The notes: generated by a model from the sequence alone, not told the origin. Shown: positions 394-42,114, counted from the stretch's first letter. The stretch is DNA of 42,114 nucleotides from Reclinomonas americana ATCC 50394 (GCA_048213135.1 PS015828.1:1-42114), one strand, 5' to 3'. Program-made: numbers and translations.

Positions 394-3300
394 TCAGGCG
401 GCGATCGAGCAGTCGGCACCCTTCCACCCGGCATTGCAAATGCAGGCACCAGATCCCGAGCAGCGACCACGACCTGTGAGACAGCAGATGCAGTGAGCGT
501 CGCAAAGGGATAAAGAGAAGAGAGAAGTAGGTAACCGTTGCAGGACTCGACAGGGCGGCAACCACCTGTTTGTTGTGTCTCACATCAGTGCACTCAGGAG
601 ACAATCGCGTACGGCTGGTGCAGACGCAACAGTTGGGGCCACCGATACCCGCGTAACAGCGGCAGCGACCAGCCACGCATTGGCTGCACATAATCCCAAC
701 TATATTATGAGAAGCAAAAGCGAGTGAAGAATGAACTTACTACGCACCCACTGCAAAGAGCAAGTCACGAATAAAGTCAGCAGATGGAAAACACTCGACG
801 ACAGCACATCAGTCGCGCGGGGAACGCACTTGTACAAACTCGGGTTCGCACTCCACGGTCCATTGCACTGCGGGTCGCTGGTGCACACAGCCGGCGAAAC
901 AATCACCGACTCGTCACGGGGAACAACAAACACATCGCGACTGGCGACGATCGCGGAGCCCGATGGCGCGGCGTAGGCTTGCACACGGTTCAGTGTCTTG
1001 AACGTGATGCGCAATTCTTGCTCTGTGCGAGAAAAAGAGAGAGAGGGAGCGTGTGTTTTTGAGTTCCACAGAAGAGCAGCGACCTCCTCTTCCTTTCCCT
1101 TCCCACTTAAACCTGTGACCTCCACGACATTGTAGCCCTCCACGTCCGTGCGCAGATGCTGGAACCACGGGTTAGCTCCCCATGCGCTGTACAGCGAGGT
1201 TAGCTGCACCAGAGAAGCTGCAGCAGATTGACAAGCGATTATTACTATCAAAGAGTGAGAGCACGACCATGATTTCTTCACGTCACGCACCGAACGAGGC
1301 GCTCGTCTTGATGCCGGCGAGCTGCACAGATGTCGAATCAGACGATCGACATTTCCAACACAAAACGCAAAGCGCGCTATCGCAATCGACAACGTACCAC
1401 TGCATCGGTCGTAGTATCAAGCACTGCACCGGGCACCGAGTACGACAGCTTGTTGCGCAGCTGCGGTCGGATTGTATCGGCCAGCTGATCGGCATTCACT
1501 GGCTTGCGACCACTGGTCTGTATGGAGGAATTCGCAAACAACACACGTGTGAGAAAGTCGCGGGTGTGTAGTACTCAGACGCAGATCAGCCACTTCCATC
1601 TTCCTCAAATTCCCTGGTGATCTCTAAGTGGTCAATCTCCGACGAACTAGCTAACCGGCAACCACCTCTTGTGCTCTCTTGCCATCACGGTTTCCGTCCA
1701 CCAGTCTTCATCACCATTTTCAAATTAGAGACGCAACAAAGTCAAACATTGGCACAACCAGCTTGATGTTGCCTACGTTGGGAACCGGAACAGTGAACGA
1801 GAAAGACACCAACGGCAACAGGGACAATGGAGCCGTTGCATCGAGGCCAGAGGCGCGGGAAGTACTGCTCATGCCGGGCGTAACAAATTCGACGCCCACT
1901 GCCGACACCGACGGATCCGTGCCCTTGCTGAAGTCGTCATACAGCTGCACGCGACGGAGAAAGAGACAGAGAAAGAAGTGAGGAGACTTGAGACGAGAAT
2001 AGTCGAGATCTACACCAGAGCGTGGGCGCAACGCGAGATGCCACTGCAGAGTGCAAGTCTCCAGTAAACACCACCAGGTTCTTCACACCCGTCCGGCGCA
2101 CGTGACCGAGAATCTCGGCACGCTCAGTCGCATAGCCGTCCCAACCGTCTGCAAGACAGAACAGACAATACAACGTGAACGCGACGCCGCAGGGCGTCAT
2201 AGACGTGAGTACGCGAGACTGCACTGCGATTGCATGCAGCAGCACTTGTTCATCACAAACCTGCCGAAAACAGGAACGTCTTCAAGTACGGTCCAAGAGT
2301 GGCTTTCTGGCCAGTGGCAGCGAGCGCCTGCGAGTTGCTCTTGTTCTGACGAATGTCGGGCTCGATGTAGCCGAACGCAATCGCATTCGCCGCAGCCTGG
2401 GCCTTTTGCGTCGGTGCAGCAGCGGCCGCGTTGAAGGCTCCCACCGCCACTCCCGCCTGCGTTGCAGTCAGACCGGCAGCGACGGCAGCAGCCGTTGCAT
2501 CGCCGCCAGTCGCCACAGCCGTCGCAATCGCTCCAGCTGCTGCCGCGGCCGTGCTCTGTGTGGCACCGGCAAATCTAGCGGCGACAATCGCCGCTGCCAC
2601 CGGCTCCGGCAGCATAAGTGCCGCTGCAGTGTTGGCGATGGACGTGGTAAGCGTCGGCACACTCTGCAATGCCACCAGTGTGGCCACTGCACGCAGGGCG
2701 TTGATCTCATTGCGCGCCACGATGACTTCGTTTCCCCACAGACGCCAGATGGCAGACGAGTTGGAGAGCTGCGACTTGAGCCACTCGCGCTGCGGCTTGC
2801 CGAGCATGGTAGTGAGCGCGAGCGGATCGTTGGGGTTGATCGTCGTCGCCTTCGCAATCAATGCAGCTTCAGCAGCGGCGCGCTGCGTGTCGTCAACAAA
2901 ATTTCTGGAACCAACGGGACCAATTTCCTGTCCAGTGAGCGGGTTGATGGTTGTCTCCGGAATGGTCTGCACAAGCACAGTGCTGTGAGATGGAGATATT
3001 GATGAAAAAGATGTGATGATTTGGTGTAGCGACGCACGTGATCCGTGCGGTAGACACGCGAGTCGGTGACAAAGAGGTGAGCGAGATTGCCGACTGCACG
3101 TTTGAAGCGGAGTGAGAAGGAGAGGCTTTCAACGCAGCATGCAGGAGAGGTGCGTACGCAACACAAAAAGTCGCGATAGATGCGCACAACGTCGTAGCTG
3201 TCGGGATTGCTGGTGTCAAGCACAACATCGGCCGGCGTGAACTCGAACCAGGCGGTGGAAGCCGAGCGGCGGCGTTGAGGCACAGCTGGGTTGGCATTCG

Positions 3301-4800
3301 TGTTGGTATCGTGATCCATCCATGAATCGCTTGTGAACTCATGGTCGTCCCAGCTGGAAGGGCGAACAAGAACAGAGAGCACTGAGGATACAACTCTGTC
3401 TCGGCTAAATGATCCACTTGCCACAACGCAACATGGTAATGAACGGGAAGTATTCGTGGGCTCGTTGCAATCGTGGATCAGTACGATACGTGGCGTAGAG
3501 AGTTCGATAATCTTCGAGTGTGTCGCTGTATGTGGAGGAGAAGGTCAGGGAAGCTGCATAGCGGAGCATATGAACGACACAACGACAGACGCACGCGCGG
3601 TACGGGTTGGTGCCGTCATCGTCAACTAGGTCGCCAACGCTATTTGGCAGCAAGAAAGGCGGGTGTGCAGCTTCGCGAGTGGGACTCTGAGACACGATCG
3701 CAGGTGGTCAGTGGAGTAAGAGGGCAGATTTCAGATGATCGTATCAAGTAGCAACAAACCGGTGTGGGGCCCACCGCCGGACTACAATCACAAGAACAAT
3801 GGCGTAAACACAACGAAGGGAGCGTGAGTCGCACTCCTTTTTCGATCGGTGCAGCCTCCACACAAATTACTGCACTATATCTTCGCAACGTTTCGTAAAT
3901 GTAATCGCCCAGATGCAGCACAAAGTCCACATCGCGCTCATTGTCGACCAGATCAGTGTAGCCTCCCCAGTGATTGCGAGACCAGTTCTGGCACGCAATC
4001 GTGGCGATCTTCAGCCGCGCCACGGAGTTCGAGCCGGGCGGCGGGAAGGTCTTGAAGCGACCGACCTGTGCGTGGTGCAGAGTGAGGCGTCGTCGCTACT
4101 ATACCTACATCACCGACCGCTTGCAACATTGACGACTGAAACGCACTCGAGAGAACACATTTCCAGCCTGGAACTGGTAGTAGTAGGTGGTGTTGGGCTG
4201 CAGATCGGTGACCTTCTGTCGCGCAGTCATGTAGAAAGAACTCGACGCCGTGACTTTGCGGTCGACAACAAACGGGCCGACAAGCGCAGCACTGCACACA
4301 CACACACAGAGAATGTAAGCAACACCAACAAAAAGTGCACTGACTGCCACAGTCGCAACTTGCTGTCCATTTTGGCACCGTTGCCAGCGATGCTGCTCAC
4401 ACGCAGCGAAATGGCCACACTGGAAACGGAGTCGGTGGGCAGTGGACCTGTAGAGGGCGCATCGAGAGGCAACGCGCGTGTCCACAAGACGACACTGTTG
4501 TGGGTGGGATCGCCCGAGGCCACACTTTGCGGGAACTGCAGCAGGGACATGCATCAAATAATGAAGGAGTGTGTGCATTGACGCTTGTCTGCAACGTTCA
4601 CCTGCCAGTTGCTGCCAGTGGCGTCGGGAGTCGGTGGTGGCGGTGGCGGCGGGGGCGGCGGTGGCGGCGCCGTGTCGGTGCACAGAGCGCCAAAGCGGCC
4701 AGTGGCACAGCTGCCGCAGTTGGTACCGGCAAAGGGGAATGGGCACTTCACGCACGACGACAGTGAGCAAAAGAGAATTTCTCCGAAAAGTACATACACA

Positions 4801-4856
<56 letters not shown>

Positions 4857-6262: not shown

Positions 6263-9813
<3,551 letters not shown>

Positions 9814-13892: not shown

Positions 13893-14584
13893 ATGACTGA
13901 GGAGTTGTTTGAGAAGCTCGCCGTCTTCTTCTTCGACGATGACATCACGTTACGTCGCACGATGGGAAAAAGGAAGAATCGATTGGTTTGCGCGCGCACT
14001 CACTTTCTGTCTCTCACACACAGAGGCGCCTTTGAGTCATTCAAGGCAAAGCACGCAGAGGCGTTTGTTGGAGTTGCGTGTGTGTGTGTGAGTGCGCGCG
14101 CGCGCAAGTTGACTCCTCTCTCTCACGTGCATGTTGTTGCGCAGGCGGATTTGACTGGCGAGCAGAAGCTTGAGTTGCGCACTCTCTGCCTCCATCTCCT
14201 CTCTGTGTTATCACTCACATGTGCGTCTCTGCGCGTGCAAAGATGGACGGGCATTTACAAGGAGTTCCAAGAAATGGTTTCGATCTCAGTCAATCATTCA
14301 CGCACTCGCTCGCGCGCGGAAAAACACTGATTGTTTGTGTGACACAGTACCAAGCCAAGCTGGTGGACTTCCTCACACAGGAGAACATTAGCGAGGAGCA
14401 GTTTGCGGAGCTGTGCGCCAGTGTTGCGTTCTTACCATTCGATATCATATTGTTCATGATGTGCTAGTGTCGTCACACGGTACGTGCGTAGGTACCAGAA
14501 GACTCGGATAACGGGCAGATTGTGCAGCTGCTGCTGGCCACCGCCGACTACGATGTCTTTTTGCAACTGATGACCACCGACTGA
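13893..14584 (+). CDS. Stand-alone BART-domain protein (ARL2BP/CFAP36-BARTL1 family)
   Basis: Six exons splice to MTEELFEKLAVFFFDDDITGAFESFKAKHAEAFVGADLTGEQKLEWTGIYKEFQEMYQAKLVDFLTQENISEEQFAELCASVPEDSDNGQIVQLLLATADYDVFLQLMTTD*. This matches the BART pattern (E.KLE.T.I..EF; LL...DF..F..M). Confidence 0.85.
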
Positions 14585-17216: not shown

Positions 17217-20200
17217 ATGGCTTCTGCCTCGCAAGCTCACCCGCACGTCGACGAGGTCGACGCGGAGGAGGAAAACCGCCGTTTGGTGGAGGTTTGTCAC
17301 TGCACACTCACACGCTCACACACACATAGACTTGCTTTTGTTGCATGCACTGCATGGAGCGAGACGAGAGACAACAAACAGGCAGTTGTCGCGCAAGTGC
17401 CATCTTGGCCATGTTCCAAGTGACAAGTCACACGCGCACTCTCCCCGCCTCTGTGTGTACTCACGCGTCTCTGCACTTGCTCTTTCTCGTCGCTGCCCTC
17501 CTCGCCCACTGTGCGCGAGTTGCACTTTGCACGCTCTTGCATGCCTGTTCCTTTTTCTTGTACGCGGAACATCTCACCGCCATGTGTGCGTCACCACTCA
17601 CTCGCACACTCTCTTATTTCTCCACCGTGCCTCCCTTCTCGCCACTCCACCTCCTTGTAACTTGCGCGCTCCCTCTCTTTCTCCACGCCACTTGCTTTCC
17701 ACTCGAGTTCTATTTTGGTCACTCTTGTACTCATCTGGTTGCATGACGACGACAACAGGATGCCCAGTCGCGCATGGCTGCGGCTTTTGGTCGCGAGGCC
17801 ATCCTCGCCCTGAAGAGCGCCAAGTACATTGTGTCGGGCCTGAACGGCGTGGGCGCAGAAGTCGGTATGTAAACGACTTGCGCCAAAGAGCAGGTTCCGA
17901 GTCTATCTACTCACGTGCTGCTGTAACACAGCCAAGAACATCATGCTGACTCGCATCGACACCATTGTGCTGCATGACACTCGCCCGACCACGTTCATGG
18001 ATCTCTCGTCGCAGGTACTCACTTGCTGCTGCTCAAACACGCACAATCACACTCTCACGTATGTCTCCTTGTGCACACACAGTTTGCGCTGTCGGAGGAC
18101 GACATTGGCAAGAACCGCGCCGAGGCCTGCTTCACTCGCATGCACGAGCTCAACCCGGCCATCAACGCTCACCTCGGTGCGTGTCACTGCCATCCCAGCT
18201 CCGCTTTTCTCTTTGTTTATTGTTGACGACGCTTTGTTGTGTGCAGAGACTGGCGACCTGTTCGACTTCCTGAAGAAGTCCGAGAACCTGCACCCAGACG
18301 GCCGCTCCATCTACGACTGCCTGGTGGTGCGTACCACTGTCCCTTGCGCTTGCCTTGTCTCTTTTCAACTGCCACTCACATTGTATGTCACAGATCTGTG
18401 ACACCAACATTGATGCCGACCTGCTGGCGCTCACCGACTGGTGCCACAACAAGGGCCTGAAGGTGGTGATTGCACTGTCGCGCGGTGAGTGGTGATGCTG
18501 GCTTGAGGTCAGAGAGGAGAAAATGGAGAATGCTGAGTGGGGGCATGCACACACAGGTCCGTTTGCCATGCTGTTTGCGGACTTTGGCCACGGTTTTGTG
18601 TGCAACGATCTGAACGGCGAGGAGTTCCAGGAGCTCCCCGTGCAGATGATTGTTGTGTTGTGTGTGTGCTCACAAGCAGCTCGGGTGTGTTCTGACAACC
18701 ACTCGGGGCGTGATTGCAGGAGGCCATCCCGGTGTACGACGAGGCCGGCCACCGTGTCGGACACAAGGGTGTGGTGCGCATCCGCGTGGCCGACGAAATC
18801 TGGAGCCACGGTCTGCAGGACGGCGACACTGTGTCGTTCAAGGTGCTGTGTGTGTTGTGTTGCGTGTGGATTACCTTCCAGTTGCTGACACTCGCTTGTG
18901 CAGAACGTCGACGGCATTGAGGGTCTGAACGGCAACGAGTTCCAAGTCACCATCATTGACCGCACTGCGTTCTCGATCGGCATGATCCCGCACGAGGGCG
19001 AGTTTGGCGGCAGCGGCTTTGTCAAGGGTGTGAAGAAGCCGGTGCCATTCTCCTTCGTTGCGTCGACTGCGAATGATCGCGTTCCGAGTTTGTGCGCGTG
19101 TTGCTCATTCTCTTCCTTGTTGTTATCACAGCGTCCGCTCCGCGACGTGCTGCAGAACCCGGGCCCGATTGTGCAGTCGGATCTGATGAAGATGTTCTCG
19201 TGCAACTCGGAGTCGCTGCACTTTGGCTTCTTGGCGCTGTCGCACTTTGTGGCGGAGAACGGTCGTCTGCCGACTCCGGGCAATGTGGCCGAGGCGGAGC
19301 GTGTGGTGCAAAAGGCGGAGACGATCTTTGCGGCCACTCGTGTGCAGTTTGTGCCGGGCTCGCCGCTCGTGCCGGTGCGCTCAGAGATGCCATTCGAGGA
19401 GGTGAACAAGGACCTGGTCCGCAAGCTGGCGCTGTACTCGCAGGGCAACTTGAACCCGATGGTGCGTCGCGATGAAGGATGAGAAGGAAAGAATGACGAG
19501 CGCTGAACTCCTTGCCCCACAACAGGCGTCGGTGTTGGGAGCTCTTGCGGCGCAGGAGGCACAAAAGGCGGTGACGAAGCGGTACCAGCCGCTGCACCAG
19601 ATCATGTACCTGGACTTTGTGGAGGTGCTGCCGGAGGAGCCGCTGTCGGAGGCTGAGCTGGCACCGATTGGAAGCCGCTACGACGGACAGATTGCGGTGT
19701 TTGGCAAGGCTGCTCAGGAGCGCATTCTGCGTCAGAAGATCTTCATGGTCGGCGCTGGTGGTGAGTTTGTATGCGAGAAAGACAGAAACGAGTGTTTCTG
19801 TTGCTCGCTTGCTGATTGGCGATGCGTTTTCTCCCTGCAGCTCTCGGTTGCGAGTACCTGAAGGACTTTGCGATGATGGGTGTGGGTTGCGGGTGCGTGT
19901 CACTGCTGTTGTGTACTTCTTATTGCTGTGGACTCACTGCGTTTTTTTGGTGGCCAGCGGCGGTGCCATCACGGTGACCGACATGGACACGATTGAGGTG
20001 TCGAACCTGAATCGCCAGTTCCTATTCCGCAAGCAGCATGTCAACGTTGCGGGCTTTGTGTGCATGTCGATCAGATCGCAAATGCGATGTTTTCTGATTG
20101 TTGTCGGTGGCTGTCTTCGCGATATCAGAGCTACAAGGCTGCGGTTGCGTGCCAGCAAGCGAGCAACATGAACCCGAATATGCATACCACTGCGCTGCAG

Positions 20201-23200
20201 CAGATGGTGGCACCGGCCACTGAAGGTGCGTTGCAAATCCGCAGGTCATGTCTCTGTGACGTAGCCCTTGTGTCGTAACACTTTTTGTGTGGGTGCATCA
20301 GGCCTGTTCGATCGCGCCTTCTGGGAGGACAAGGATATGGTGGTGAATGCACTGGACAACATCCAGGCTCGCCTGTACGTCGACGACCGCTGCGTGCAGT
20401 TCCGCAAGCCGCTCGTTGAGGCCGGCACGGAGGCCGTCAAGTGCAACTGGTGTGTGCATGTATTTTCCTGATGTTTTTCCGTTATCCTTCGCTCACTAAG
20501 CCTTGGTGTGCACAGCTGTGTGAGTACACTGGCTGTTTGGGAGTGTGTCCAGCGTGTCGTGGCTGGCAGTGTCTCACACCACGTTTTTGTGTCCGCTGTA
20601 CAGATTGTGATTCCGGGCTTCTCGGTCAACTACGGCTTCCATCGCGAGATTGACCCGCCAAAGGCCAAGAAGTGCACTGTGACCAACTTCCCTGTGCGTA
20701 ACTTGCTTGTGTAGGTGTGTAACTTGATTGTGCGTTGCATTCTGACCTTCGGTGTTGTCTTGTGCGCAGTACGTGCGTCATTGAATAACCCTTGTACCTT
20801 TATTACCAAGCGAATGACTCACGTTTGTTTTTTCCCCTCCTTGCTCTTGATTGCATACAGCTGGTGAGTTGGCCCATGTGTTGCGCGATGGTCCTGTCAC
20901 GTGTTGCTTAGTTAACCCTTCGAATCGCAGATCGAGCACTGCATCCAGTACGCGCGCGAGATCACGTTCCAGAAGCTGTTTGTGGACTGCCCGGAGGCTG
21001 TGGCCGAGTACCGCAACAACCCGCAGGCCTTCCTGGACAAGGTCAAGGAGATGCCGGAGACGGAGAAAGTCGATGTTGCGTTGAGGCGATCTGTATGTCG
21101 GAGTCGACGGGAAGATACTGATGTGGTGGTGCGTCGCAGGTTGCCCGCAAGCTGGCTGGCATTCTGAGCGCCGAGAACCGCTGCGCCTCTCTGGAGGACT
21201 GCGTGGCGTGGGCGCGCAACCTGTACGAGGAGGAGTTTGTGCACTCGGCGTTCCAGTGGCACTCGCTGTACCCTCGTGATGCCAAGAACCGCGACGGTGA
21301 GTCTTGTGCCGGCATTGCCTGCCATGTGAGTTGATGACTTGCTGACTCGGGGCATTATTGCAGGCACGCCGTTCTGGGGTGGCGTCAAGACTTACCCGAC
21401 GGAACAGCGATTCGACCCGGCAAACCCGCTGCACGTGCAGTTCCTGGTGCGCGACAATGTATTGTTGGCTTGTTGCAGTTGCCCTGCTCATCCCCGGTTG
21501 GTGCACAGGTGACGGCGACTGCGCTGCGCGCCAAGACTCTCGGCATTGCTGTGCCGTCGGAGTTCCGTCTGGATAGCCGCCGTGGAAAGGCGCTGGTGCT
21601 GGAGATCGCCTCGCGCGTCAACGTGAAGGCGTTCAGCAACTCGGCGGTTTGTAAAGCGTGTGGTGGTGGCGCGTGTGTCGAGTTCCTCATACCGTTGGTG
21701 AATGCGATGAGCAGAAGGCATCGACCGACGGTGAGGACGAGTCGAACGTGTCGCTGGTGCAGGAGTTCGACCCGAACGCCGTGCTGAGCTCGCTCCCGTC
21801 GCCGAGCGACATCTCGCCGTCGGTGACCGCCGATGAGTTCGAGAAGGACAACGACCTCAACTACCACGTGGACTTCCTGATGGCCGTGTCCAACATTCGT
21901 GCCATCATGTACCGCATCGACACGGTGGACCGCCTGAAGATCAAGCTCGTTGCCGGTCGTGTGATTCCGGCCATTGTGACGAGCACGGCTCTGATCTGCG
22001 GCTACGCGAGCTTTGAGATGCTGAAGGTGTGTGTGGATTTTCGGATGAGATTGCACTGAACTTGTCGGTTGGCTGACTGCTGGGTGCAGATCTGGTCTGG
22101 CCGGCCAAACTCGGCGATTCGCGAGTCGACGGTCAACCTCGGCACGCTGATGTTCACCGTGCAGGAGCCGATGGAGGCGCCGAAGGTGAGAGTGTCTATT
22201 GTGTGTGCCTGCTTCCTTCGGAGCGGTAGGGTGATGACTGATTGACGTGCTTTGTTCAACGTACAGTGGAGCTACAAGGGTGCGAGTGGCGACCACACGT
22301 TCACGCTGTGGGACAGCGTGCATGTGGACGCGCGTGGTCTGACGCTGAAGCAGGTTTGTCGTTGCTGTTGCTCTCCTCGCTGTTGCTCCTTGTCTCTGTC
22401 GCTCTCCTCGCTGTTGCTCTGTGTCTCTATCGCTCTCTTCGCTGCTGCTCTGTGTCTCTGTCGCTCTCTTCGCTGCTGCTCTGTGTCTCTGTCACACTCC
22501 TCGCGGTTACTCTGTGTCTTGTGTCGCTCTCCTCGCTGCTGCTCTGTGTCTGTGTCGCTCTCCTCGCTGTTGCTCCGTGTCTCTGTCGCTCTTCTCGCGG
22601 TTGCTCTGTGTCTCTGTCGCCCTTCTCGCTGTTGCTCTGTGTCTGTGTCGCTCTCCTTGCGGTTGCTCTGTGTCTATCGCTCTCTTCGCGGGTGCTCTGT
22701 GTCTCTGTCGCTCTCTTCGCTGTTGCATTGTGTCTGTCGCTCTTCTCGCTGTTGCTCTGTGTCTGTGTCGCTCTCCTTGCAGTTGCTCCGTGTCTCTGTC
22801 GCTCTCCTCGCTGGGCGTACTGCACACAGGCGTCCTCACCAATGCTATTCATTCCTGGCAGTTCTTGGACAAGATGAAGGCGGAGCAGGAGCTGAACATC
22901 GAGACAATCTCGGTGGTGCGACAGGACTACGTGGTGTGGTTTGGCGCTCGCGGGGCGCTGGACAAGCCGCTGCTTGAGCTCGTGGAGAATATCGTGAAGA
23001 AGAACAAGCTGCACGTGGACCCGTCTGGCATTATCGAGTTCCTGGTGTCGGCACCGTTGCGTAGTGGCCGTCTGCACCGCGCTTGGTGAATCGATTTTGT
23101 CTCACTCACGCGCGCGTGGTGATTTTACTGCAGTGATGGCTCCGTGGTGAAGAAGCTGGATCAGGAGGGCAAGGAGTACGAGGAGGACGGACCGGAGCAT

Positions 23201-23569: not shown

Positions 23570-26500
23570 TCATCGGTCCAACATGGTGGGCCATGCAGGC
23601 GCCCGAGCCCCGTCCATTTCCGAGGCGAGTTGGTTGGACGCGAGGAGTGTGTGCTGAGAACCACCGACTGTTGCTCCACAGTCGGGACAGCGGCTGGTTT
23701 GCATGGCCCCGCCGCACTCGCCGATAAAGTATGGATGTCCGTTGGGGCATTTGAACCAGTGTCCCGCCGCCGACGAACCACCCAGCTCCTGTCGCATGGC
23801 GGCCACGATCATCTGTCGTTCCTCCTCGGACAAGCGATTTGCGATGGCTGCAAGAGCCTCCAGGCCTTCGTACCTCGGGTTCAACTCTCGCAGCTGCGAG
23901 AAAGTCGTCAGCGACTATCATGATATCACCTGTACACAAGAAAGCAAAACGCGAGCAGACGGACGCAACAAAACGAAGCAGTCGCTTTGCTTTGTCAACG
24001 TTGGCATGCTGTCCAGACGACTCCATGACAATCCAGTGATGCAGGGCGCGACAACGGTGCTCCACCATCACTTGATCGTCAGCCGCCACACGCTGCAGCC
24101 GAAGCAGGTGGTGAGTGAGCGACAAGTGCTCGCCGAAATGAACACCGCTACACACCTCGTACTCTGTGGCGGCATCGACGCGACGGTTCGCGCGTTGATA
24201 CGCCTCGGCCAGTTGTAGGCGTGCATCGTGGTGGCTCGGAAGCATGTCCAGAACGCGTTTGAAGTTTTTGATGGCCGCCTTCAAGTTGTTTCTGCACACC
24301 TCGCTGTTATTTTCAAGCCGCCTACTCTCACACATTCCGTGAACTGTGATGCGCAACGAATCCAATGCCGCAAAGCCGGCTGCCATACAACGCTTGCTGT
24401 TGAGACGACGCTTGACTTTGTCAATGTCGTCCAGCGCGTGCCGAATCGAGGCTGAATACCGAAGTGTGCGACGCACCGATGCCTGCGGTCACCAGCATCT
24501 GAGACTAAAGTAGCCGTGGGCACGAGCAAAAGAGGCACATTGGCACGCAACTCGGCAGCTCGGACACTTTGGGAATCCGATTGCCTTGTGCTCCGACGCA
24601 TCGGGATCGTCCTGTTGCAATCCTTTCATGTACTCGTCGAGGCCGGTAACCTCGAAGACGTGATGACAGTCGACAAGCTCGACAAACAGTGCGTCTCCAT
24701 CAAACTGCATCCATGCGGACAGGTGTCAGCATAACACGAAAACAAGCGTCGCAGACGACAACCGCGTACCTCAGAGAGAGGCATCATGTGAATCGGCTCC
24801 TCCATGTCACCGTTACAGATGCGACACGCTCGCGGACATGGTTCGCCACACACACCAATACACGTATGACCACACTCAAGGACCTCCTGCGATGGTACGT
24901 GTCAAACCGGATGAAAGCATAGAGGATCGATTGGTATATCTATAGCATACGAACCGCACAGGGACGCATGCATGGCGGTCGATCACACGGGTCACTGCAC
25001 AGTTGGTGACAGGCATGGTGTTCGCAGTGGTACGCACACGGTTCGCCGCATGGCACGCAGATCTCGCCGCAGGCCTTCTGGCATCGCGAGTGCACACAGA
25101 AGTTTTCACATGGCAGAGCGCATGGCGGGCAGTCGTCGCAGCATTTCTGTCACTCGGTGTGAGATGCTTACTTACAAAAGCGCGCCCGACAGCGCAAGAA
25201 GCTAATAACGCAACCGACTGACACTTGTGGCCACACAGAAGGTACCGCTTGCACGGCTCAGTGCACGGTACATGCTGACGACCACCATGACACTTGCCAC
25301 ACGTCCCCGCACACGAATGACCGCATCGCTCCAGCACATGTCGACAGGGCTCACGACACTCGATTTTCTCGAGTGGCACTGAGCACGCCACGTAGGCCGT
25401 GTGTCCACACGGAAGCAGTCGGCGCACGTTGTGCCCGCAAGGGGCGCACTCCTCGCTGCACTTGCTCTGCATGATAATGACTCACTCTGAGCACTGCACG
25501 CTGCGAGCAGCGACTGCCAACCGCTACTGCACAGACTGCTGAAACACACCTGGCACTGATGTCCGCAGGAGAGGATCTTCGGACACGAATGCTGGCACTT
25601 GTCGAATTCTGCTGGGTCAAGGTGGCACGGCACCAGCTGGGTGTGTCCGCACGAAGGAATGACCTTGTCGACCAGTTCCATACACTTCCCCTCAATTACA
25701 GCCTTTGCATTCCAGCATGGCACAGTGAGACTTGGGAGTGTATGTGCTGTGAGAAGAGAGGGGAAACGACGCCGACGATCGAAACAGCCACAAATTCACC
25801 TGTGTTCAGCCGGACAACTGCGCGGAGTCACAGTCTTTTCCTTCGTGCACGGATAGGACTCGCACGATGCAGCGTGGCAGCACAGCGTGCACATGTGACC
25901 ACATTCTCGTCGCCCACCGCACGGTAACTTGCAGCCGCCGAGAATCACGTCATCAAAATCACGCGATTTGCTGACCGACGTGACGTTCTCTGCAACACGA
26001 ATGTGAGCAAAAAGCACGCATGGGGCACCCTACAAACAAACGACATGTTCCAAACCTGGATGGTGGTGACATTGCAGAGACAGCGCAGGTCCACACGCAT
26101 GTTGCTCGTCAAATTCACGGAATACTTGCCGCCACAGACCGCAACCCTGAGACTCAGACAACAACTTGCGGTTGCCGATCACGTACATGGCTGCGTTTGC
26201 GCCGACAACAAGAATGAGAACACCTCCATCGCAAGATACTGACTGCAGACTGTACCATGTCGGGCGCGAGAGAGCGCGACACAGATGCGGTTCTCGATCT
26301 TGACGAATCCAGTGACGCCTTCCATGTTGGATCGAACAAGCGACAACAGGATAATATCGTTCTCTTCGCCCTGGTAATCGTCGATCGTGGACACACGAAC
26401 ATGTTGAATGTCAGACGTGCCGGGAGTGTTCGCACGATGGCGGCGGAGCGCATCTTTGAGCTCCATCACTTGTCCCGTATCTGTGACACCAGCACACTTA

Positions 26501-29500
26501 GCTGCGGCGCGGAAAACACTCTTGAGTAGTACCCTCACGCAACAAGTAGTAAGCAAAGTGATGCGGTCGGCCGTGTAGTCGCCTTGCTGCAAGATATAGC
26601 AGCAAAGTCGCACCAAGAACTCGGCCTCGTGAGGGTTCTTCTTGCTGCCCTCTCCGGTCTCCTGGTGCTCGTGCGTCACGAAATAGAGATTGCGCGAAAT
26701 GCCGCGAACAGACGGGTACTCCAGCACGGACTCGTGATCCGTGAGTCGCGGATAAATGGGTCGCACCAAGCTTCGCAATGTGCAATGGGCACCAACACAC
26801 CCTCCTAACACAACACTCACGCAAGTACGAACCGACTGATCTCCGGACGCATACGATGCTGATTGGACAGAGTCTCGTGCCCGTGACCGACTGCCACGAG
26901 GCGTTCTGCGCGTGTGAGACCGTCATCAAATTGAGTCAGTACAAACACATCGCATGAAGCAAGCGGGCAACTCACCAAACAGGGAGACATCGTGCTTGTG
27001 GACGCGAGAGAGGTGATAGTCGGCAGCATGAGGTCTTGCAGACATGAAATGTCAGCGCTTGACAAAGAACGGTGTGCACAAGAAGAGAGCAAACCGAAGT
27101 TGCTTGTGGTCGCCGATTAGCACACATTGTTGAACATCTTCGAACAGGGCGCAGACGGCATGCGCTTCAAAGATTTCAGCAGCCTCCTCGACAATCACCA
27201 CGGACGGCGATATCTCGTGACTTGACAGCAAACTCGCGTACTTGGCAGCAGCTGCAAGCAACTCAATACTCTCAGCAAAACAACCCAAACCCACTGTGCA
27301 GTCAACGTGACAAACCAGTCGTGGTCATGGCAATCACTTTGGCGGAAGCCATAGCTCTGCACATTTGCACGCACACAGAGAGTGCAACAGTGAATTTGAG
27401 AGACCAGGTGTCATTGTCATCTTGTTGTCACACGAAACTCAATGTCACGCTCCATGTTCAGCTCTTCCAGCTGGTGTTGCGCGTCGAGGTACCGTTGATT
27501 GTAGTCGTCGATTAGCGGACGCAGTACGTCCATCATGACTTGCTGACGCAGTTGACGATGCAAGACCTTGCGAACGACAGGCGAGAGCTGCCAGAGATCG
27601 TCGACACCAGCGAAATCTACGTTGGCAGCAGGGGCGGCATCAGAATTCTGCTGTGAAAACTCTCCGACAAGATGATCAACGCAACCAGTTTCCATCATCA
27701 GCTTGACGGCTTCGACTGCCTCGGCTTCGGCTTCGGCTATGGAGGGAAACACAATCAACAACAGAAAGTCGGCAACGCACTATTCAGCCGTTCGGTACCA
27801 TGCAGATCCGCAGGAACTGTACAGTGACGACCAACATTAGCAAGGACGAATGCAAAACAACACCAAAGAAAGGCGCAAGAAACATGACAAACCATCGCCT
27901 GGAGCTTCTCTCGACACCGCTGCGACCGGAGCGACATGTGGGTGTGATGTATGGACATAGGAGACAGAACAAGAACAACCCCTCTTACCGTCGTCGTTTG
28001 CCTCCGCTTGCTGCAGTGCAAGCTCAAAGTCTGCAAACTTGCGATCCGAGAACTGTTCCACATCGCGGTCGTACCAGCCATCGTCATCACCGTCGTCATA
28101 GTCGTCATCATCGTCAAAGGCTTTCGGAATGATGGTGAAAGCGCGCTCACATCGACGATAGGCAGCGGCCAGCTCTCGTGCCTTGTCTGGCGAATATCCG
28201 AGCCACCGTGCGACGATGGCCATTTCGTCCATCGGTTGCTGCCGATCGCGCTTCTTGGAAAGAATCTGTTGGCCTCGCTGAACAAAGTACTGTCGAAGGT
28301 CCGATGGAATTCGGGTTTGCTCCAGATTGCACACCGGAAAGACATACAGCGAGGCCAAGACCTGTATCTGCTCCTCCAGTTGCTTGGACATCTGACGCAG
28401 TTCGTACATGGTCTTCCCGCGACGACCCGTAAGCTTCACCTGCCGTACCGCTTCCATCAGAGTGTACGGCTTCAGGCGCTCGCTTCGCGACCGGCCACCA
28501 ATTCGAATCACGCTGGTTGTAGTGTCGAGAATCGCCTCCAGGAACTGATCGATTGCGTGATTGGTGTAGCACACGCACAGGATTGGCCGATTTCGCAGGT
28601 TGACCGCACGATCCGTGCCCTCCGAGTTGGCCAGCAGCAGTCGAGTGAGAACGAGGCCGATGTACGTCTTGCCGGTGCCAGGTGGGCCTTGAATCAGTGG
28701 CATCTGAGAATTGAAGCACAGTTGCAGCGCAGCAAGTTGACTGGGGTCGAGACCAAGTGGAAGGTCCAACCACGTCGGCTGCCGCGGATTGTGTCGACGG
28801 CGGACAAGGGGAATCAGCTCTCGGACCTCGGGAGACATCTGCAAACACGGCGTGTTGACCGGTCAGTCAACCTCTCGAATAGAAAGTATTCAATTGACAA
28901 CGAGCGCCCGCACCAGAGTTGAGAAGTCCATAGGCGCAGCCGTCAGGTAGCCAGGCGGAATCAACGCGCGTCGGTCATCGGCCGAAGCCAGCAAGTACGG
29001 ATAGAAGAGTTGAATGTCGTTCAACATGGCCATCGACTGCAGTCTACGCAGTACGTGCACCGAGGCCTCGAAGTAGCTGCTGGTGGACTCGACCTGTGAA
29101 CAGAAGAGACACACATGAATACGCGGTCGGCAACTCATCCCTGCGCCAATCATCACACTTCTCGCGTTCCGTACCATCGTAAGAGTCTCAACATCGGCAC
29201 AAGGCAACACGAGATCACCACCGGTGACTCCAAGGATCTGCAAATCGACATCCTCGCCCTTGCAGCGAGTCACCACTCCACAAATGACGTGCTCCTCAAA
29301 GCGGTCGGCGCTCAACGCGACGAGAGACCCGCCCTTCAACAGATCGCGCTCAGGGCCCTTCTTCGGTCGATTCGTCTGCTTCCTCTTCGACTGGTTTGCT
29401 TGCACAATCTTGAAGTGGTAGCACAAGCCCACGCGTTGCACCAGAGTCGGTCCTGTGCAGACAACGCGGTCGAAGACGCGCAAGCTGCGTGGAGGTCGGC

Positions 29501-33457: not shown

Positions 33458-36400
33458 TTACAGCACCGGCGTGACGGCGACAGCCATGGACTCCTGTGCG
33501 TGACTGGGTGAGAATAGCGTGCGTGAGCAGGAGTTGATGTGGCTGTTTGCGCAACGATGGCACACTCGTCGGTTCCGCGCTGTGGCACAATGTGAGTCAT
33601 GAAGCGAAAGACAAGGAGAGACAAAAAAAGGCAGAGTCGACTTACCCGAATGCGGAAGAAACCGTCCTCGCCCCAGGCAGTCTGCGCGAGATGGCAGTGA
33701 GAAGTGGGGGAGCAAGAGGCAGCATGTAAGAGAGAGAGAGAGACAAACCCCTGTGTTGTTGTGGACATTTGCGACGATGAACGCAAAAGAAATGTGAGCA
33801 GACGGGGCATCTTCAGCTGTCTGTCAAGCGAGCAACTCACCCCTGCAATCACACGAGTGAGACATCGAACAACAAGCACACATTGTGGACAAAGAGACAC
33901 TCACCAGCTGTTCTTGACCTTCCAGAACTGCGACGATGACGAGGAGACTCGTGTTAGTCAAGAAGGGAAAAGGATACATGGCGAAGCGAGCAGTGACTAA
34001 ACCTTCACGCCATCGGATGTGGTTCCGTATCCGACGATTACCACGACTGCAAAGCAAAGAGAGAGGAGTAAGAGGAAGGGGGATAGTCATGCAGGCACGA
34101 TGGCACGTCCGCAAACCGTCTGCGCAAATGACGACACGTGAGTGGTGCGCAGCATGTCAATCAATAACGAAAGACGCAACGATTGGTCAGCTGGAACGGG
34201 TTGAAGGTCACCAGGTGCGACACTGCGGTGTGCGAGTACACGCCACCCTGCCAGGCAAGCTTCAGTCCATCAAACGACACACTCTAACCATCGACAACGC
34301 CACACACCTTGTAGTTGTGCAGATCGGGGTACACCTCGAACGAGACAGCAATCGGGCCATTCGCCACCAACTCCTCCATCATGTTCAGCTCCGTGGCCGC
34401 CCCGTAGTAGCCACCAATGTAGTGGTAGTCGCTGTGCAACGGAGCATGTCAGAGGGAGGGAGAGAGTGACGAAAAAAGCGTGGCGAAAGGGAACGAAACG
34501 AGGTCCAGTGCAGGCGCGGGTTGGAGCAGCGCTTCGAGCACGACACCTACAGCCATGGATGGTGTGAGAGGTGACAGAAGCGGAGATCTCTCACATCGTG
34601 CGTCCTACACACACCTCCGTGGCAACATACGGGAAGCAGCTCTCCTCCACGTGTCCGAAGTCGTGGCCGTACTGCGCGGTCGCACGAAGGGAGTGCAGTG
34701 AGCGACGACAAAATCACACAGGGTGACAAGAAACCCGACCTTGCCAGCAGCCAGGTACGGGAAGCCGCCTGCGTCAACACATTTCGTCAGTCTGGTGCAT
34801 TCGGCACAAGAAGAGAGGTGACAACACACACCGTCGCAGCCGTGCGAGTAGACAGAGCACGAGACAATGTTCTGAGTACTGAGGATGACCTACACAAATA
34901 CGCGCGCACGTGCGCACGTGAGCAAAGCACTCAAGTCATACACTTCAAGCAAGGCAGGCAGGCAAACGCACCGTGTTCGTGTTGTTGGAGAGAATGCGCA
35001 GGCGAGCCTCGAGTGTGGCCGCCGACGCAAAGGCGTAGCAACTGCCGCATTGCTGTGTGGTGCACGGTGATGCGCGCGCATGAGCAAGTCAGAGCGGGGG
35101 AGTAAGGGAGGGAGGGAGGGAGGGAAAGAGCGCGACTCACTCCCTGGTTGCTGTTGGCAAGACGAGAAAAAGAAGCAGATGAGCTCTCAGCGTGAGAGAG
35201 ACAGCAATCGCGCGACAGGCACGCACCGGATGGGCGACACGTAGCTCACCTGTACAAAATAACACAATCAGCACGTGAGAGACTGCCATAGCACCCCCTG
35301 CATTTCGTGTGCATCACGCAACTCCATTGACATTGGTCCAGTCCCACGAGTCCGGCAGCGTCGACGACAGCGACGTGGCCGCGTTCTCCGCCAACTCCGG
35401 CTTCTGCGGCTTGGTGACAGCGGCGGCCAACTCCTGGCGCGCATACGAGCCACCGGCACGGCGCTCCATCTGAACAAGGCAGCGTGGTGAGCTCAAGTCC
35501 ACAGCTGTGATCCGAGTCACGCTTCACGCAACATCGCCAATGGTCAACCCGAGGTGCTCGTCGTAGGTAGTGGCCGTCCACAGGCTCTGCGCCTTGTTGA
35601 TGGCGTCCACAAACTCAAAATCGTGCTCGTACCTATGCACACGCCATGTGAGTCGACGACATGCACGCGCGAGGCATCACGAAACACAACTTGAGCTGGG
35701 CGCGGAGCGGGTCGACCACGGCCAAGTCGAGGCTCGTGCGGAGCGGCACCTTGGGCGTCTCCGGCGCGCTCTGCGTCTTGATGCCAAAGTAGCAGCCCCA
35801 GTTGCCCGGCTGCAAGTGCCACGAGACGAATGAGCGACACAACCAGTGTGTCTTCTTCAAACGGCCTCACCGCATACTGCTCTCCATCGTTATGGTACCA
35901 CCCCGGCAGCGTCTCGGAGCACACAGAGGTCACATGGCCACTCGGATCGGTCACCCACTTGGAGAAGGCGAAGAAACGACGACCGCCGACCTTGACTGCA
36001 CTCACGCTTGAGAACAATGACGCAAAACACAATGACAAGCGAGAAAACAAACCGTCAAACGACCTGTCATGAGGGGGTTTACATAACAACAGAAGGTGAT
36101 TAGTGAGTGTGCAGTGCGCGCCTGCTTTTGTTACACGAAACATGGAATAAATCATGGTCCAGAAGCCCTGATTGCCAGCACTGTCTGTGACCTTGTCGGG
36201 GTAATCCAGTGTGACTGTGTACGTGTTCTCCACCTATTGTACACGCATCCACTGAGCACACACACAGTGGAGAAGAACAAACAAGCGCGCGCGCAACAGT
36301 GAAGGGATTGGTGCAGTTGATGTTGTCACGAGTGAAGCCGGCCGGACCCAAGTGGAAGGTCCACGTGCCACGCACCTGTGACACGCGTGCACAGTGAGTT

Positions 36401-36599
36401 GCAGTCTGTGAGAGAGACAGACAAAGAGAGACGCAACGTCCTCGTACATGCAGTTTGCGGGGGTCTGTGACTGCGTGTGTGAGCGAAAAAGATGATCACA
36501 AGTGCGTGCATGACACGCAACATCAGCCACCACTGCATACGGAGCAGCAGCGACACAAAACACCGCGAGGAACACGAGAAGAAGCGCGCAAAACTTCAT
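33458..36599 (-). CDS. CTSC: Cathepsin C (dipeptidyl peptidase I), papain family with exclusion domain
   Basis: Signal peptide, then [129 protein letters not shown]. The model requires microexons. Confidence 0.95.
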
Positions 36600-39430: not shown

Positions 39431-39470
39431 GGACGAGAATGAAGCACTTTTCGTTTCTCGGTATTTTTCA

Positions 39471-40068
39471 TTAACGCCTCGTGTCGAGCACTGAGAAACT
39501 CGGCACGCCACGCAAAACTGTCACGCGACTCGGATCGCACGGTTCGAACAGCGGCACTGTTGCCTTGTGTTCGTGGAAACTGCGCATCTCACACACCTGA
39601 ATCTCGTCCATGCCGCGATCGGTGAGGCGGAAAATGCCACACGACGGCTGCGCGCGCGGTGCCATGACCACCGCAATGGCTTCGTCGAGAATCGCCTGAT
39701 ACCCAAAATGTGTGTGCATGTCGACGCTCGAGAGGAAGGCGTCTTGTGTCGGATGCGTGTGAATCCACCCGAGGGTGATCAAATTGAGCCGGTTCTGCAC
39801 CTCAAACATCTCGTCCTCGTTGTGCGCCTCGACCGTGTCCGGCGACCCCGACTGCTCCGGAACAATCAGATGACTGACGTGCAATGTGGAGCCCTGCGTG
39901 AGCGGGCAGAGTGAGCTCATTCACCAGACGATGCCTGGATGGGACACGAACCGGAGCACCGGCGAGGATTCCGCAAAACTCGACTTTGCGAGCCGTGTGG
40001 TCACTGGCCAGCTCCAAAAAGCGCAACAACAGCTCCTCGTCAATGGTAATCGGGCGCAGCCGCGGCTG

Positions 40069-40107
<39 letters not shown>

Positions 40108-41067
40108 AGTGGTGGCAGCACTTGACCCTCCCGCCGCTGGTGGTGGAAGAGATGCCGGTGGTGGTGGTGGCTGCGGCATGGGCGACATTTCTGACCAATC
40201 AGGCGGTGTGTACGGCGGCGGTGGTCCCAGCGACGACGGAGGCGTCGACGGCAGCACTGGCATGGGCGCTGTTGGCGGCGGCGGCAGACCGAGTGCACTA
40301 AACGACGCCGGTCGATCCCACTCATCATCGTACGCCGGTGGCAGGTTCTTGCCCACAGCAGCCGCCGCCGCGACTGACGGAGCTCCCAGAGGCGCCGACG
40401 GCACCAGCGGCATGTCAAACAAGTCATCCGCGGCCGGCAGTGGCACAATCCCCACACGTTCTGTCATCACTGGAGGTGGCAATGACACTGCTGCTGCTGC
40501 TGCTGCCGAAGCTGCTGCTGCCTGTTGCTCCTCCTCCAGCGCTCGTCTTTGCTGCTGCTGCTCGGCCTCGTGTCGCTGCCGCATGACCTGCTTCACAGTG
40601 TCCGCGTACGCCTCACATTCGTCCATGAAGCGCTCGGCGAACCGACGCGTCTCGTTGACTTGCGATTGCAGCTTCCGATTGCCGGCGCTGTTGAGTGCCG
40701 GGTGCCTCAGAATCACTTGAAAATACAAGCTGTCGTGAGGGCACACAGTGAGCGAGAGACAGTGAGAATGAGCGAGGTAAAGAGTGACGACGCACCACAC
40801 ATATCGCCACAGTGCGACATAGAGATACTCGCGTTTGTTGTCACTGCGGTACTCTTGGATCTGTGGAGTGTGTGAGCAGCTGCGTTGTGTCTTCAAGCGC
40901 GCGTCTGTCTGTGAGACCTTTTCTCGCAAGTTCCTCGCCACATTGAGGTACGTCGACACGGTGCGATTGGTGTCCACTTGTGTGCACAGTGGCTCCGACT
41001 CGGCACGCTCGCGCAAGCCGCGCAGGTACTCTTTCACTTGCGCGTCAAGCCCGCTCTCGTCGCTCAT
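39471..41067 (-). CDS. STAMBP: AMSH/STAMBP-like JAMM (MPN+) deubiquitinase with N-terminal MIT/USP8-dimer-like domain
   Basis: N-terminal TVSTYLNVARNL..EYLYVALWRY..ILRHP; Pro-rich linker; FLELASDHTARKVEFCGILAG; LIVPEQSG; LGWIHTHPTQDAFLSSVDMHTHFGYQ..EAIAVVMAP..GIFRLT. Confidence 0.92.
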
Positions 41068-41485
41068 CGGAAAGGAAGAACGTCGCGACGGGTGAAGATG
41101 AAAGTTCGATTTCGGCAGACGTCGACGTTGCGCTTTGTGTCCCTTCTCGATGGTCGCCAGTGATGCGGAACGAGTGTATTGGGGGTAAGAGGGTGTCTGC
41201 GCTGCTCTGTTGGCGCTGAAAACCCTTTGTATGCCGACGTCGACTACAAAATCGCTGATTTTCCATACCTCGCTCTTGCATAGTGCCTGCATGCATGCGG
41301 CATGTTGTGCGATTATTCGCGCTGTGTGGCCGAGTGATCGTTGATGTGCCACGCTGGAATCAATGCATCCTGGGACAGTCCCGGTGGCCTGTGAAACACC
41401 ATTGTCCACATTTGTTAATCTCGTGCGCCGCGTGTTTCCTGTTGTCAGGCGAGAGAGAGAGAGAGAGAGAGAAGACATATAAACA

Positions 41486-42114
41486 ATGGTGGAAGCTGAG
41501 ACGCGCAAACGCCTCATTCTGAACACTTGTGTGTTGGTGTTCCTCGTGTGGTACTCCCTCTTCAACTTCCGACTCTTCGCCTCCACACTGTTGACATTGC
41601 CGTTCATCGCCTTCGCCTTCCTCGACAAGTCCACTGTGCTCTTCCGCCTGCTCATGGACAAGGTGTGTGTGTGTGCGTGTGTGCGTGGAGAAGGGGGGTG
41701 ACATTGCGTGTGCCCTCGCACTCTCTCACACTCACACACGTGTCTGTGTTTGTTATGTAAAGTGCCCGCCTGTGCGTCGTTGGTTCTGGAAGCGCTGGTA
41801 CGACTTTTGCGGGCGCGCTGCGCAGACCAGTCAGATCCACTTCCTCAACTACGGCTACGACAGCCCCGTGTATGCCAACTTCCCAGTTGCGACACATGTG
41901 TATGTTGTGTGTGTGGCAAGAGAGAGACTGATGGATGTGAGGATTTACGTACAGTTGGACGGATCGCAAGAGCCCAATCGATATTCGATTCAGCTGTACC
42001 ACTTTACGGCGACCTCGTCGGGCCAGTCGTTGCAGAATTGCGATATCCTCGATGTGGGATGCGGGCGTGGCGGTGGCACCAGGTCCGCGATTCCTTGCCT
42101 CCCATCTCTCTCTC
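41486..42114 (+). CDS. Class I SAM-dependent methyltransferase with N-terminal hydrophobic helices (partial, runs off the window)
   Basis: MVEAETRKRLILNTCVLVFLVW..|..WKRWYD..IHFLNYGY..|LDGSQEPNRYSIQLYHFTAT..ILDVGCGRGGG (SAM motif I). It resembles the mycobacterial Rv2952-type lipid O-methyltransferase family. Confidence 0.8.

Follow-up and report, generated by a model that had tools for sequence, protein, structure and literature searches.

GTTGCG introns in a Reclinomonas americana genomic window point to a second major class of 5' splice sites, possibly read one nucleotide out of register

How is an intron recognised when its 5' splice site (donor) begins GTTGCG? A 42,114-nucleotide (nt) stretch of the Reclinomonas americana ATCC 50394 genome (GCA_048213135.1 PS015828.1:1-42114), referred to here in its full length as the window, raises this question. 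To our knowledge, recognition of donors by U1 in the canonical register, with the G at exon position −1 and the G at intron position +5 as the strongest anchors, is regarded as near-universal, and shifted or bulged registers are rare mammalian exceptions. An earlier note on the window had listed 27 introns starting with GTTGCG and several variants of them. It had remarked that these donors never follow an exonic G and carry G at +6 instead of +5, and had proposed a shifted or bulged U1 register, possibly through a variant U1 or U6 small nuclear RNA (snRNA). Gene models built from the genomic sequence now place GTTGCG at genuine and abundant intron starts, and the pattern at −1, +5 and +6 holds. 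The best explanation overall, which we favour with moderate confidence, is that two donor classes exist and that one of them is read in a register shifted by +1; we infer both this register and the recognising RNA.

We derived the junctions from protein homology and ab initio models in one 42-kilobase (kb) window, which gave ~60 well-modelled introns in four genes: a ubiquitin-activating enzyme E1, a PhoD-like phosphatase, cathepsin C and a ZNFX1-like helicase. Our own protein-to-genome spliced aligner scored alignments with BLOSUM62 and charged every intron the same penalty. It required introns to begin with GT, or with GC at a further cost, and to end in AG, disfavouring RAG acceptors, and was blind to the donor beyond GT or GC. 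Our own ab initio gene finder was also donor-blind (GT or penalised GC). It combined codon log-odds from aligned codons, position weight matrices for the branch point and the acceptor, and an intron-length prior, and its parse of the whole window contained 117 introns. Homolog sets comprised 20 full-length E1, 40 PhoD and 8 cathepsin C proteins; a homolog search with the E1 FCCH/4HB exon returned no match, and the E1 set was obtained with a conserved exon of 68 amino acids (aa) as query. The consolidated set held 60 introns from the four genes, with the two long E1 introns counted once each and the ambiguous E1 18327/18339, PhoD 3870/3889 and first cathepsin C introns excluded. A homology-only set (support of at least 50%) held 44 donors. 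Coordinates of minus-strand sites give the G of the GT, and 100 dinucleotide-preserving shuffles of the window served as the motif null. All 60 modelled introns had GT..AG ends, partly by construction, because the tools admit only GT/GC..AG. Scoring each GT by its best downstream branch point and acceptor did not resolve donors (scores of at least 10 at 18% of GTTGCG, 17-18% of GTGCGT/GTGAGT and 10% of all GT), and a local flank-coding score was too coarse for donor calling because the exons are shorter than the scoring window.

GTTGCG was over-represented in the window and concentrated at predicted intron starts. We counted 71 copies on both strands, compared to a shuffle mean of 44.66 (standard deviation 6.29, maximum 66); none of the 100 shuffles reached 71. 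The heptamer GTTGCGT occurred 31 times (10.7 expected under a first-order model) and GTTGAGT 3 times (8.1 expected); the canonical heptamers GGTGCGT and GGTGAGT occurred 19 and 15 times. Across the E1, PhoD and cathepsin C spans, 22 copies of GTTGCG lay on the sense strand versus 3 on the antisense strand, and 15 of the 22 sense copies began an intron, where the three spans held 59 donors and 1010 sense GT in all (P = 6e-15, hypergeometric test). A 16th GTTGCG donor, in the ZNFX1-like helicase, was placed to the residue by PDB alignment. GTTGCG accounted for 16 of the 60 modelled donors and 19 of the 117 in the ab initio parse (~16-27% of modelled donors), which bears out GTTGCG(T) as a real, abundant donor class.

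The hexamer was found, on the expected strand, at each of the 27 coordinates of the earlier note. Homology supported 14 of these as intron starts; for another five (3889, 14174, 14423, 23056 and 41886) the support came from donor-blind ab initio or local scoring only, and the remaining eight are weighed below. One homology-verified GTTGCG donor, at 35532, was absent from that list. Among the 19 ab initio GTTGCG introns, 12 lay outside the homology evidence or agreed with it (14174, 14423, 19057, 21075, 23056, 41886, 37981, 26543, 4359, 3889, 2032 and 1737), and the rest were cathepsin C and PhoD sites. The ab initio model missed 3432, which was swallowed by an over-long intron, and 20046. As for the variant donors, homology supported GTTTCG (36141 and 34499), and the support for GTTGTG at 18652 and GTTACG at 13949 was ab initio only.

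We observed a sharp split at the last exonic base. In the consolidated set, 34 donors carried +5G (class C: GTGCGT 11, GTGAGT 6, GTTTGT 5, GTGTGT 4, others 8), 20 had the form GTT..G without +5G (class S: GTTGCG 16, GTTTCG 2, GTTGTG 1, GTTTAG 1) and 6 were of other types. G stood at −1 in 29/34 class C donors versus 1/20 class S donors (P = 4e-9, Fisher's exact test), GTTTAG being the sole class S exception. The same split was seen in the homology-only set (21/25 +5G donors versus 0/11 class S; P = 2.3e-6, Fisher's exact test) and in the ab initio parse (42/56 versus 3/28, with 0/19 for GTTGCG). No exonic G preceded any of the 27 listed sites or any of the 16 modelled GTTGCG donors, as had been claimed. 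Nine of the 44 unlisted GTTGCG copies do follow G, and none of the nine is a predicted donor; three such G-preceded copies are exonic in E1 (two Gly-Cys codon pairs, one Ala-Val-Ala). GTTGCG donors do not share the strong preference of canonical donors for −1G. Relative to a background of 20% G, depletion gave P = 0.002 (0/27) and P = 0.026 (0/16); active exclusion of G at −1 is suggested by these data but not proven. The −1 bases of the 20 class S donors were T 9, C 8, A 2 and G 1, and no base was favoured at −2 (A 8, T 7, G 3, C 2).

The class S profile (n = 20) reads H/GTT(G17/T3)(C18/T1/A1)G(T15/C3/A1/G1), the slash before GTT marking the exon-intron junction. By definition +5G is lacking and +6G present in 20/20. 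Position by position, a GTTGCG donor is the canonical heptamer G/GTGCGT with its second G changed to T, which upholds the observation that its G has moved from +5 to +6. More generally, class S +4 (G 17, T 3) corresponds to class C +3, class S +6 (G 20/20) to class C +5, and class S +7 (T 15/20) to class C +6 (T 29/34). Shifted by one position, the profile matches the canonical one (−1G, GT, +3 G>T>A, +4 C/A/T, +5G, +6T) except that the canonical +1G is T. C was near-obligatory at class S +5 (18/20), and the A:C ratio was 9:13 at class C +4 versus 1:18 at class S +5 (P = 0.011).

Downstream of the donor the two classes were alike. Median lengths were 69 nt (class S) and 70 nt (class C), and neither the acceptor (CAG) nor the branch-point motif differed between them. 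Modelled introns were mostly 55-90 nt long (median ~70 nt), with a yeast-like CTSAY branch point 15-47 nt from the intron 3' end (7-mer; 38 training introns, class S included) and acceptors CAG (56/60) or TAG (4/60). The models point to two major GT-AG donor classes, C = G/GT(G/T/A)(C/A/T)GT and S = H/GTT(G>T)CG(T), that would coexist on a common downstream intron architecture.

Individual junctions are given in Table 1. The closest PhoD homolog by far was P0082 (score 1498, compared to at most 974 for all but one other), and 5 of the 14 introns in its alignment start with GTTGCG. Its alignment was colinear with the spliced model, as were those of P0019 and P0009 with E1, of P0216 and of the PDB chain 9q9z_A. 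Splicing at 3432 restores the PhoD motif FPFIT-I-WDDHEF. At 3889, the donor-blind local score preferred the listed parse (−0.7) to a rival single 184-nt intron from 3870 (GTAATT; −12.3), and homology was equivocal, with 28/40 homologs choosing 3870. In E1, P0019 and P0009, two of the three best homologs, both chose 21075 when re-run on that sub-region. Donor 23056 was used by only 2/20 homologs, which in an initial aligner run joined it to another acceptor (23231, GAG), and junction 18652 was loosely placed by homology. The last cathepsin C junction reads ...DECAI/ESMAV.... In the helicase, the open reading frame (ORF) carried ~29 surplus residues relative to human ZNFX1 (9q9z_A), exactly at the 63-nt intron. 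Splicing there gives ITLLTT-Y-TGQ (split codon T/AT), compared to ITILTTYTGQ in human ZNFX1. The helicase ORF at 27840-28862 aligned intron-free, and a PDB search with the ZNFX1-domain ORF at 28893-29879 gave no match.

The E1 model is a single uninterrupted ORF of 1055 aa over 25 introns and the cathepsin C model one of 483 aa over 25 introns; both become complete when predicted exons of 2-3 nt are included. In cathepsin C these putative exons (34117-34119, 33841-33842 and 33749-33750, minus strand) would be needed for the catalytic His and for the W and G of NSWG; the one after the intron at 34120..34180 would complete the His codon. In E1, the modelled 3-nt exons 20770-20772 and 20861-20863 (plus strand) would supply exactly the two residues missing relative to homologs and would turn what looks like one 237-nt intron into three introns of usual size. 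In both genes each such exon is predicted to lie between introns of ordinary type, 61-90 nt long, every one of which has its own branch point and CAG. Two T-preceded GTTGCG copies lie inside E1 introns, 18859 (16 nt after donor 18843) and 20880 (51 nt before acceptor 20930); possible roles are as decoys, as enhancers that bind U1 or as alternative donors. A tandem repeat with a 31-nt unit (14.6 copies, 84% matches) and three frames open fills a long E1 intron, 22354-22861 (plus strand, 508 nt).

How might class S be read? In the shifted register that we favour, the U1 5' end, and later the U6 ACAGAGA box, would pair with the TGCGT block and the intronic +1G one nucleotide away from the usual alignment. 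The +1G of class S would fill the role of the exonic −1G, leaving no selection for G at −1. Cleavage would remain 5' of the sole GU, which sits one base further upstream. Such a site would have one obligatory mismatch, the U at +2 opposite U1 C8, and its remaining positions would have to match the optimum of the organism exactly, which would leave only the GCG version in use. The recognising RNA would pair better with C than with A at class S +5. Two further candidates were rejected. An intron displaced by one base (G/TT...CA/G) would alter the mRNA by two bases and break the frames fixed by homology. An origin by +1G>T mutation with sliding is impossible, as the acceptor cannot move one base and stay AG.

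Several points weigh against this explanation. Nearest-neighbour energies (ViennaRNA; a model that leaves out pseudouridine and proteins) gave 0.5 to −1.4 kcal/mol for H/GUUGCGU with a standard U1 5' end in any register, that is, no stable duplex. The standard end would favour GUUGAGU (−2.7 kcal/mol), which is not used as a donor in the window genes. A simple shift on standard U1 does not predict the near-obligatory +5C, and it predicts a neutral −1 base, or A pairing with U10, rather than absence of G; the depletion of −1G relative to background is itself only moderately significant, the contrast with canonical donors being far stronger. Eight of the 27 listed sites (630, 7786, 14073, 15861, 31515, 33076, 36521 and 37370) were not confirmed. 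None was positively refuted; 33076 and 36521 look plausible, and at 14073 the model favours a GT 6 nt upstream (14067) with the same acceptor. In-frame rival GTs 6-12 nt away were preferred by some homologs or by the ab initio model at several sites, the homologs being 35-50% identical: 20046/20058 (ab initio, by 2.3 bits), 21075/21069 (9/20 homologs), 2032/2044 (21/40 homologs) and 14073/14067. Both the aligner and the gene finder are scripts of our own, unbenchmarked and limited to GT/GC..AG introns. No RNA family reached threshold in the window, and no snRNA gene (U1, U6, U11, U12 or U6atac) was found even at E<=1. A recognising RNA that paired with G-C facing +3/+4 would account for both the +5C and the energies, in that a shifted site with one mismatch would tolerate no second. 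Taken together, they lend some weight, weakly, to the earlier idea of a variant U1 or U6. A combined form of the proposal is tentative: two recognition modes would operate side by side, H/GUUGCGU (~1 intron in 4) would be read by an out-of-register non-standard U1 or by a second U1 variant, and −1G would act as an anti-determinant that spares exonic GGUUGCG, for example at Gly-Cys pairs.

A change in the snRNA itself, rather unlikely in our judgement, would take one of two forms: a single U1 that carries GC rather than UU at positions 5-6 and works in two registers, or a second U1 paralogue complementary to GUUGCGU. In the paralogue form, class S would be the cognate site, as donors of U12-type introns are for U11, and the neighbouring base would disfavour −1G. 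The +5C bias and the disuse of GTTGAGT (31 versus 3 heptamers), although GTGAGT is a common canonical donor, argue for such a change, as do the class C donors lacking −1G (3 GTGCGT, 1 GTGAGT and 1 GTGTGT). A hypothetical U1 with GC at positions 5-6 gave −12.9 kcal/mol for G/GUGCGU, −6.2 for C/GUUGCGU with the shifted register optimal, and −1.2 for GUUGAGU, compared to ~0 for GUUGCGU with the standard end. There is precedent as well in the co-evolved U1 5' ends of Entamoeba (ACAAAC/GUUUGU) and Mastigamoeba (ACGUAC/GUACGU) and the mixed U1 variants of Physarum (10.1101/2022.06.08.495308). The same study, however, describes the U1 5' end as standard in lineages with a preference for +4C or GYGCGY donors, namely Thecamonas and Micromonas (10.1101/2022.06.08.495308). 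The snRNA search of the window yielded no U1 gene. Moreover, the hypothetical U1 would still gain from −1G (−9.1 kcal/mol), which leaves the absence of −1G unexplained.

A bulged register, which we consider improbable, keeps normal +1G and +2U pairing, bulges one U of +2/+3 and resumes pairing at GCGU, as in the human 'bulge +2/+3' class. It equals the shifted register in base-pair count and leaves the G:C and U:A pairs at +1/+2 stacked; ViennaRNA picks it when −1G is present, and it is among the registers validated in human cells (PMC4856993). It would, however, leave U1 C9 free for −1G as at canonical sites (29/34), yet −1G occurs in 0/16 GTTGCG donors, and the three exonic GGTTGCG in E1 are unused, including one that lies 7 nt upstream of a real donor. 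A bulged U predicts the very −1G that is never seen, which favours the shifted register. Artefact, either GTTGCG as a common coding or compositional word or junctions at neighbouring GTs, is highly improbable. In its favour, the models come from genomic sequence, several sites have in-frame alternatives, eight listed sites are unconfirmed, and a first-order expectation for the hexamer is already 44. Against this stand the conserved motifs that pin junctions to single residues (I-WDDHEF, LTT-Y-TGQ, DECAI/ES), two complete ORFs over 25 introns each that need every phase correct, the enrichment at donors, and branch points and CAG acceptors that are ordinary in kind and spacing. That class S introns are a mobile introner family carrying its own GTTGCG 5' end and inserting after non-G is scarcely credible. 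It would account for the uniform 5' end and a −1 target-site bias, but class S lengths and branch points are those of other introns, and local alignment of intron interiors gave means of 8.13 within class S (171 pairs), 8.09 between class S and the rest (760) and 8.04 within the rest (780), with a 95th percentile of 12 in all three.

Table 1. Predicted introns, unused sites and genes in the window, with the −1 base and start of each donor
Feature	Position	Strand	Donor (−1 base/intron)	Length (nt)	Phase	Support or remark
PhoD intron	4292..4359	−	A/GTTGCGACT	68	2	P0082 alignment; ab initio; only 5/40 homologs
PhoD intron	3354..3432	−	T/GTTGCGTTG	79	2	40/40 homologs; P0082
PhoD intron	3094..3162	−	T/GTTGCGTAC	69	1	40/40 homologs; P0082; ab initio
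PhoD intron	1945..2032	−	C/GTTGCGCCC	88	0	P0082; ab initio; 7/40 homologs
PhoD intron	1518..1737	−	T/GTTGCGTCT	220	0	P0082; ab initio
Candidate PhoD intron	3782..3889	−	C/GTTGCGAAG	108		Followed by 22-nt exon and GTTTGT intron 3687-3759
E1 intron	19057..19131	+	C/GTTGCGTCG	75	0	11/20 homologs; ab initio
E1 intron	20046..20128	+	C/GTTGCGGGC	83	0	20/20 homologs; conserved adenylation motif
E1 intron	21075..21139	+	T/GTTGCGTTG	65	0	P0019, P0009; ab initio; 4/20 homologs overall
Last E1 intron, candidate	23056..23133	+	C/GTTGCGTAG	78	2	Ab initio; required for open frame to C-terminus
E1 intron, variant GTTGTG donor, candidate	18652..18719	+	T/GTTGTGTTG	68		Ab initio only; in complete 1055-aa ORF
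Cathepsin C intron	36376..36437	−	C/GTTGCGTCT	62		6/8 homologs; ab initio
Cathepsin C intron	36234..36297	−	T/GTTGCGCGC	64		6/8 homologs; ab initio
Cathepsin C intron (unlisted by the earlier note)	35470..35532	−	T/GTTGCGTGA	63		6/8 homologs; ab initio
Cathepsin C intron	35250..35322	−	A/GTTGCGTGA	73		7/8 homologs; ab initio
Cathepsin C intron	34120..34180	−	C/GTTGCGTCT	61		4/8 homologs; ab initio
Last cathepsin C intron	33494..33555	−	C/GTTGCGCAA	62		3/8 homologs; ab initio; complete ORF
Cathepsin C intron, variant GTTTCG donor	36064..36141	−	T/GTTTCGTGT	78		7/8 homologs
Cathepsin C intron, variant GTTTCG donor	34432..34499	−	C/GTTTCGTTC	68		6/8 homologs
ZNFX1-like helicase intron	26481..26543	−	T/GTTGCGTGA	63	1	PDB 9q9z_A alignment; ab initio
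Candidate intron, small gene	14174..14242	+	A/GTTGCGCAC	69		Ab initio only
Candidate intron, same small gene	14423..14491	+	T/GTTGCGTTC	69		Ab initio only
Candidate intron, right end of window	41886..41954	+	A/GTTGCGACA	69		Ab initio only; positive coding score on both sides
E1 exon with two unused GGTTGCG (Gly-Cys codon pairs, 19847 and 19886)	19846..19892	+				Real donor 19893, 7 nt past 19886
Further helicase GTTGCG occurrences	27685, 29526, 29626, 31515, 31588					
PhoD-like phosphatase gene	~900-4850	−				Pfam on stop-to-stop ORFs
TPR protein gene	7.5-9.8 kb	+				Pfam on stop-to-stop ORFs
Arf GTPase gene	12.4-13.8 kb	−				Pfam on stop-to-stop ORFs
Ubiquitin-activating enzyme E1 gene	17.8-23.2 kb	+				Pfam on stop-to-stop ORFs
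ZNFX1-like helicase gene	26-30 kb	−				Pfam on stop-to-stop ORFs
EMC8/UPF0172 gene	31.9-33.3 kb	+				Pfam on stop-to-stop ORFs
Cathepsin C gene	33.5-36.6 kb	−				Pfam on stop-to-stop ORFs
AMSH-like JAB protein gene	39.5-41.8 kb (39474-41844)	−				

The window is eukaryotic, gene-dense and intron-rich to an extreme degree, with a G+C content of 56.6%. The closest relatives of its E1, PhoD and cathepsin C proteins were environmental proteins from metagenomes or transcriptomes, and the homolog searches found no annotated protein from this genome. Downstream of the PhoD homology, EGF-like Cys-rich ORFs at 397-736 (minus strand; Teneurin-type EGF, E=2.7e-4) suggest a possible PhoD-EGF fusion architecture in the region that includes the listed site 630. 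A small ab initio gene at 13893-14584 (plus strand) had T at +3 in all five predicted introns (GTTACG; GTTGGA, with a GTTGCG 6 nt downstream as the alternative; GTTGCG; GTTTCG; and GTTGCG); its Pfam search gave no match. The AMSH-like gene consists of a 680-aa open exon without a Pfam match followed by a JAB/MPN exon, and the protein-language-model neighbours of the 680-aa ORF were proteins that combine USP8-dimerisation and JAB domains (AMSH-like; scores 0.80-0.82), a lead only. Runs of N at 4961-5099 (139 nt), 6553-6656 (104 nt) and 32289-32308 (20 nt) are presumably assembly gaps; the first two have long (CT)n and (CA)n microsatellites at their edges, and the third lies inside the EMC8-like gene.

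The combined form of the proposal, if true, would make this the first lineage to use a shifted-register or variant-U1 donor constitutively and as a major class. Full-text searches of an open-access library found no GTTGCG or shifted donor class described as a major part of any genome, although a report on a particular taxon may exist. With about a quarter of its donors following a rigid displaced consensus, such a genome would be a natural system for studying how U1, U6 and U5 choose the cleavage site when register and GU disagree. It could also address whether the U1 5' end can co-evolve with a second site class, and the role of the −1 base. In practical terms, gene finders trained on ordinary donors and aligners that penalise donors without +5G would mis-annotate a large share of introns here, and the predicted 2-3-nt exons would worsen this.

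Mammals provide known systems with which class S can be compared. Their +1 shifted-register 5' splice sites were reportedly described by Roca and Krainer in 2009, and the A-rich shifted donors of humans are of the GUUAAGU type. Like class S, they are GT-AG donors without −1G and +5G, with conserved G/U at +6/+7 and cleavage at the GU. Each pair between a rare human site of this kind and U1 is displaced by one position, shifted and bulged registers alike are experimentally established in human cells, and the validated noncanonical registers jointly make up 1.5% of 201,541 human 5' splice sites (Tan et al. 2016, PMC4856993). Here, in contrast to the A-rich human donors, +5C is near-obligatory and −1G absent. 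They are rare in humans, whereas class S would contribute about a quarter of the donors in the window, with a register that the sequence suggests.

Bulge +2/+3 sites are said to have been described by Roca et al. in 2012. They resemble the GTTGCG donors in having an extra U after GU and then a block that pairs with U1 positions 3-6, and differ in that C9 is left free for a −1G that GTTGCG donors lack. The human class comprises 68 predicted sites only (PMC4856993, Table 3).

Class S is also reminiscent of U12-type introns as a second donor class with a rigid extended consensus beside the major class in the same genes. The U12-type consensus is RTATCCTT at the donor and TCCTTRAY at the branch point. 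Class S donors are GTTGCG with CTSAY branch points, and the window held no match to U11, U12 or U6atac. Class S, unlike U12-type introns, shares branch point, length and acceptor with the major class. Its frequency would far exceed that of U12-type introns in humans, given as 0.36% (PMC4856993).

Entamoeba and Mastigamoeba share with class S an atypical consensus with T at +3 (GUUUGU), and a matching change in the pairing region of their U1 has been proposed. They have a single transformed consensus in the canonical register (87.9-89.5% GUUUGU; 10.1101/2022.06.08.495308), whereas here two classes with a one-base offset appear to occur in the same genes. The division of donors into AG//GUNNN and NN//GURAG, in which −1G ordinarily makes up for a missing +5G (Parker et al. 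2025, PMC11732430), is similar in splitting the consensus into two separable classes tied to different snRNA contacts. Only the six 'other' donors of the window, four of them with −1G, behave like AG//GUNNN. Class S, without +5G, also lacks −1G (1/20) and has no −2A preference, which is the reverse of the compensation described there and would speak for a shifted register rather than for a canonical site that is simply weak.

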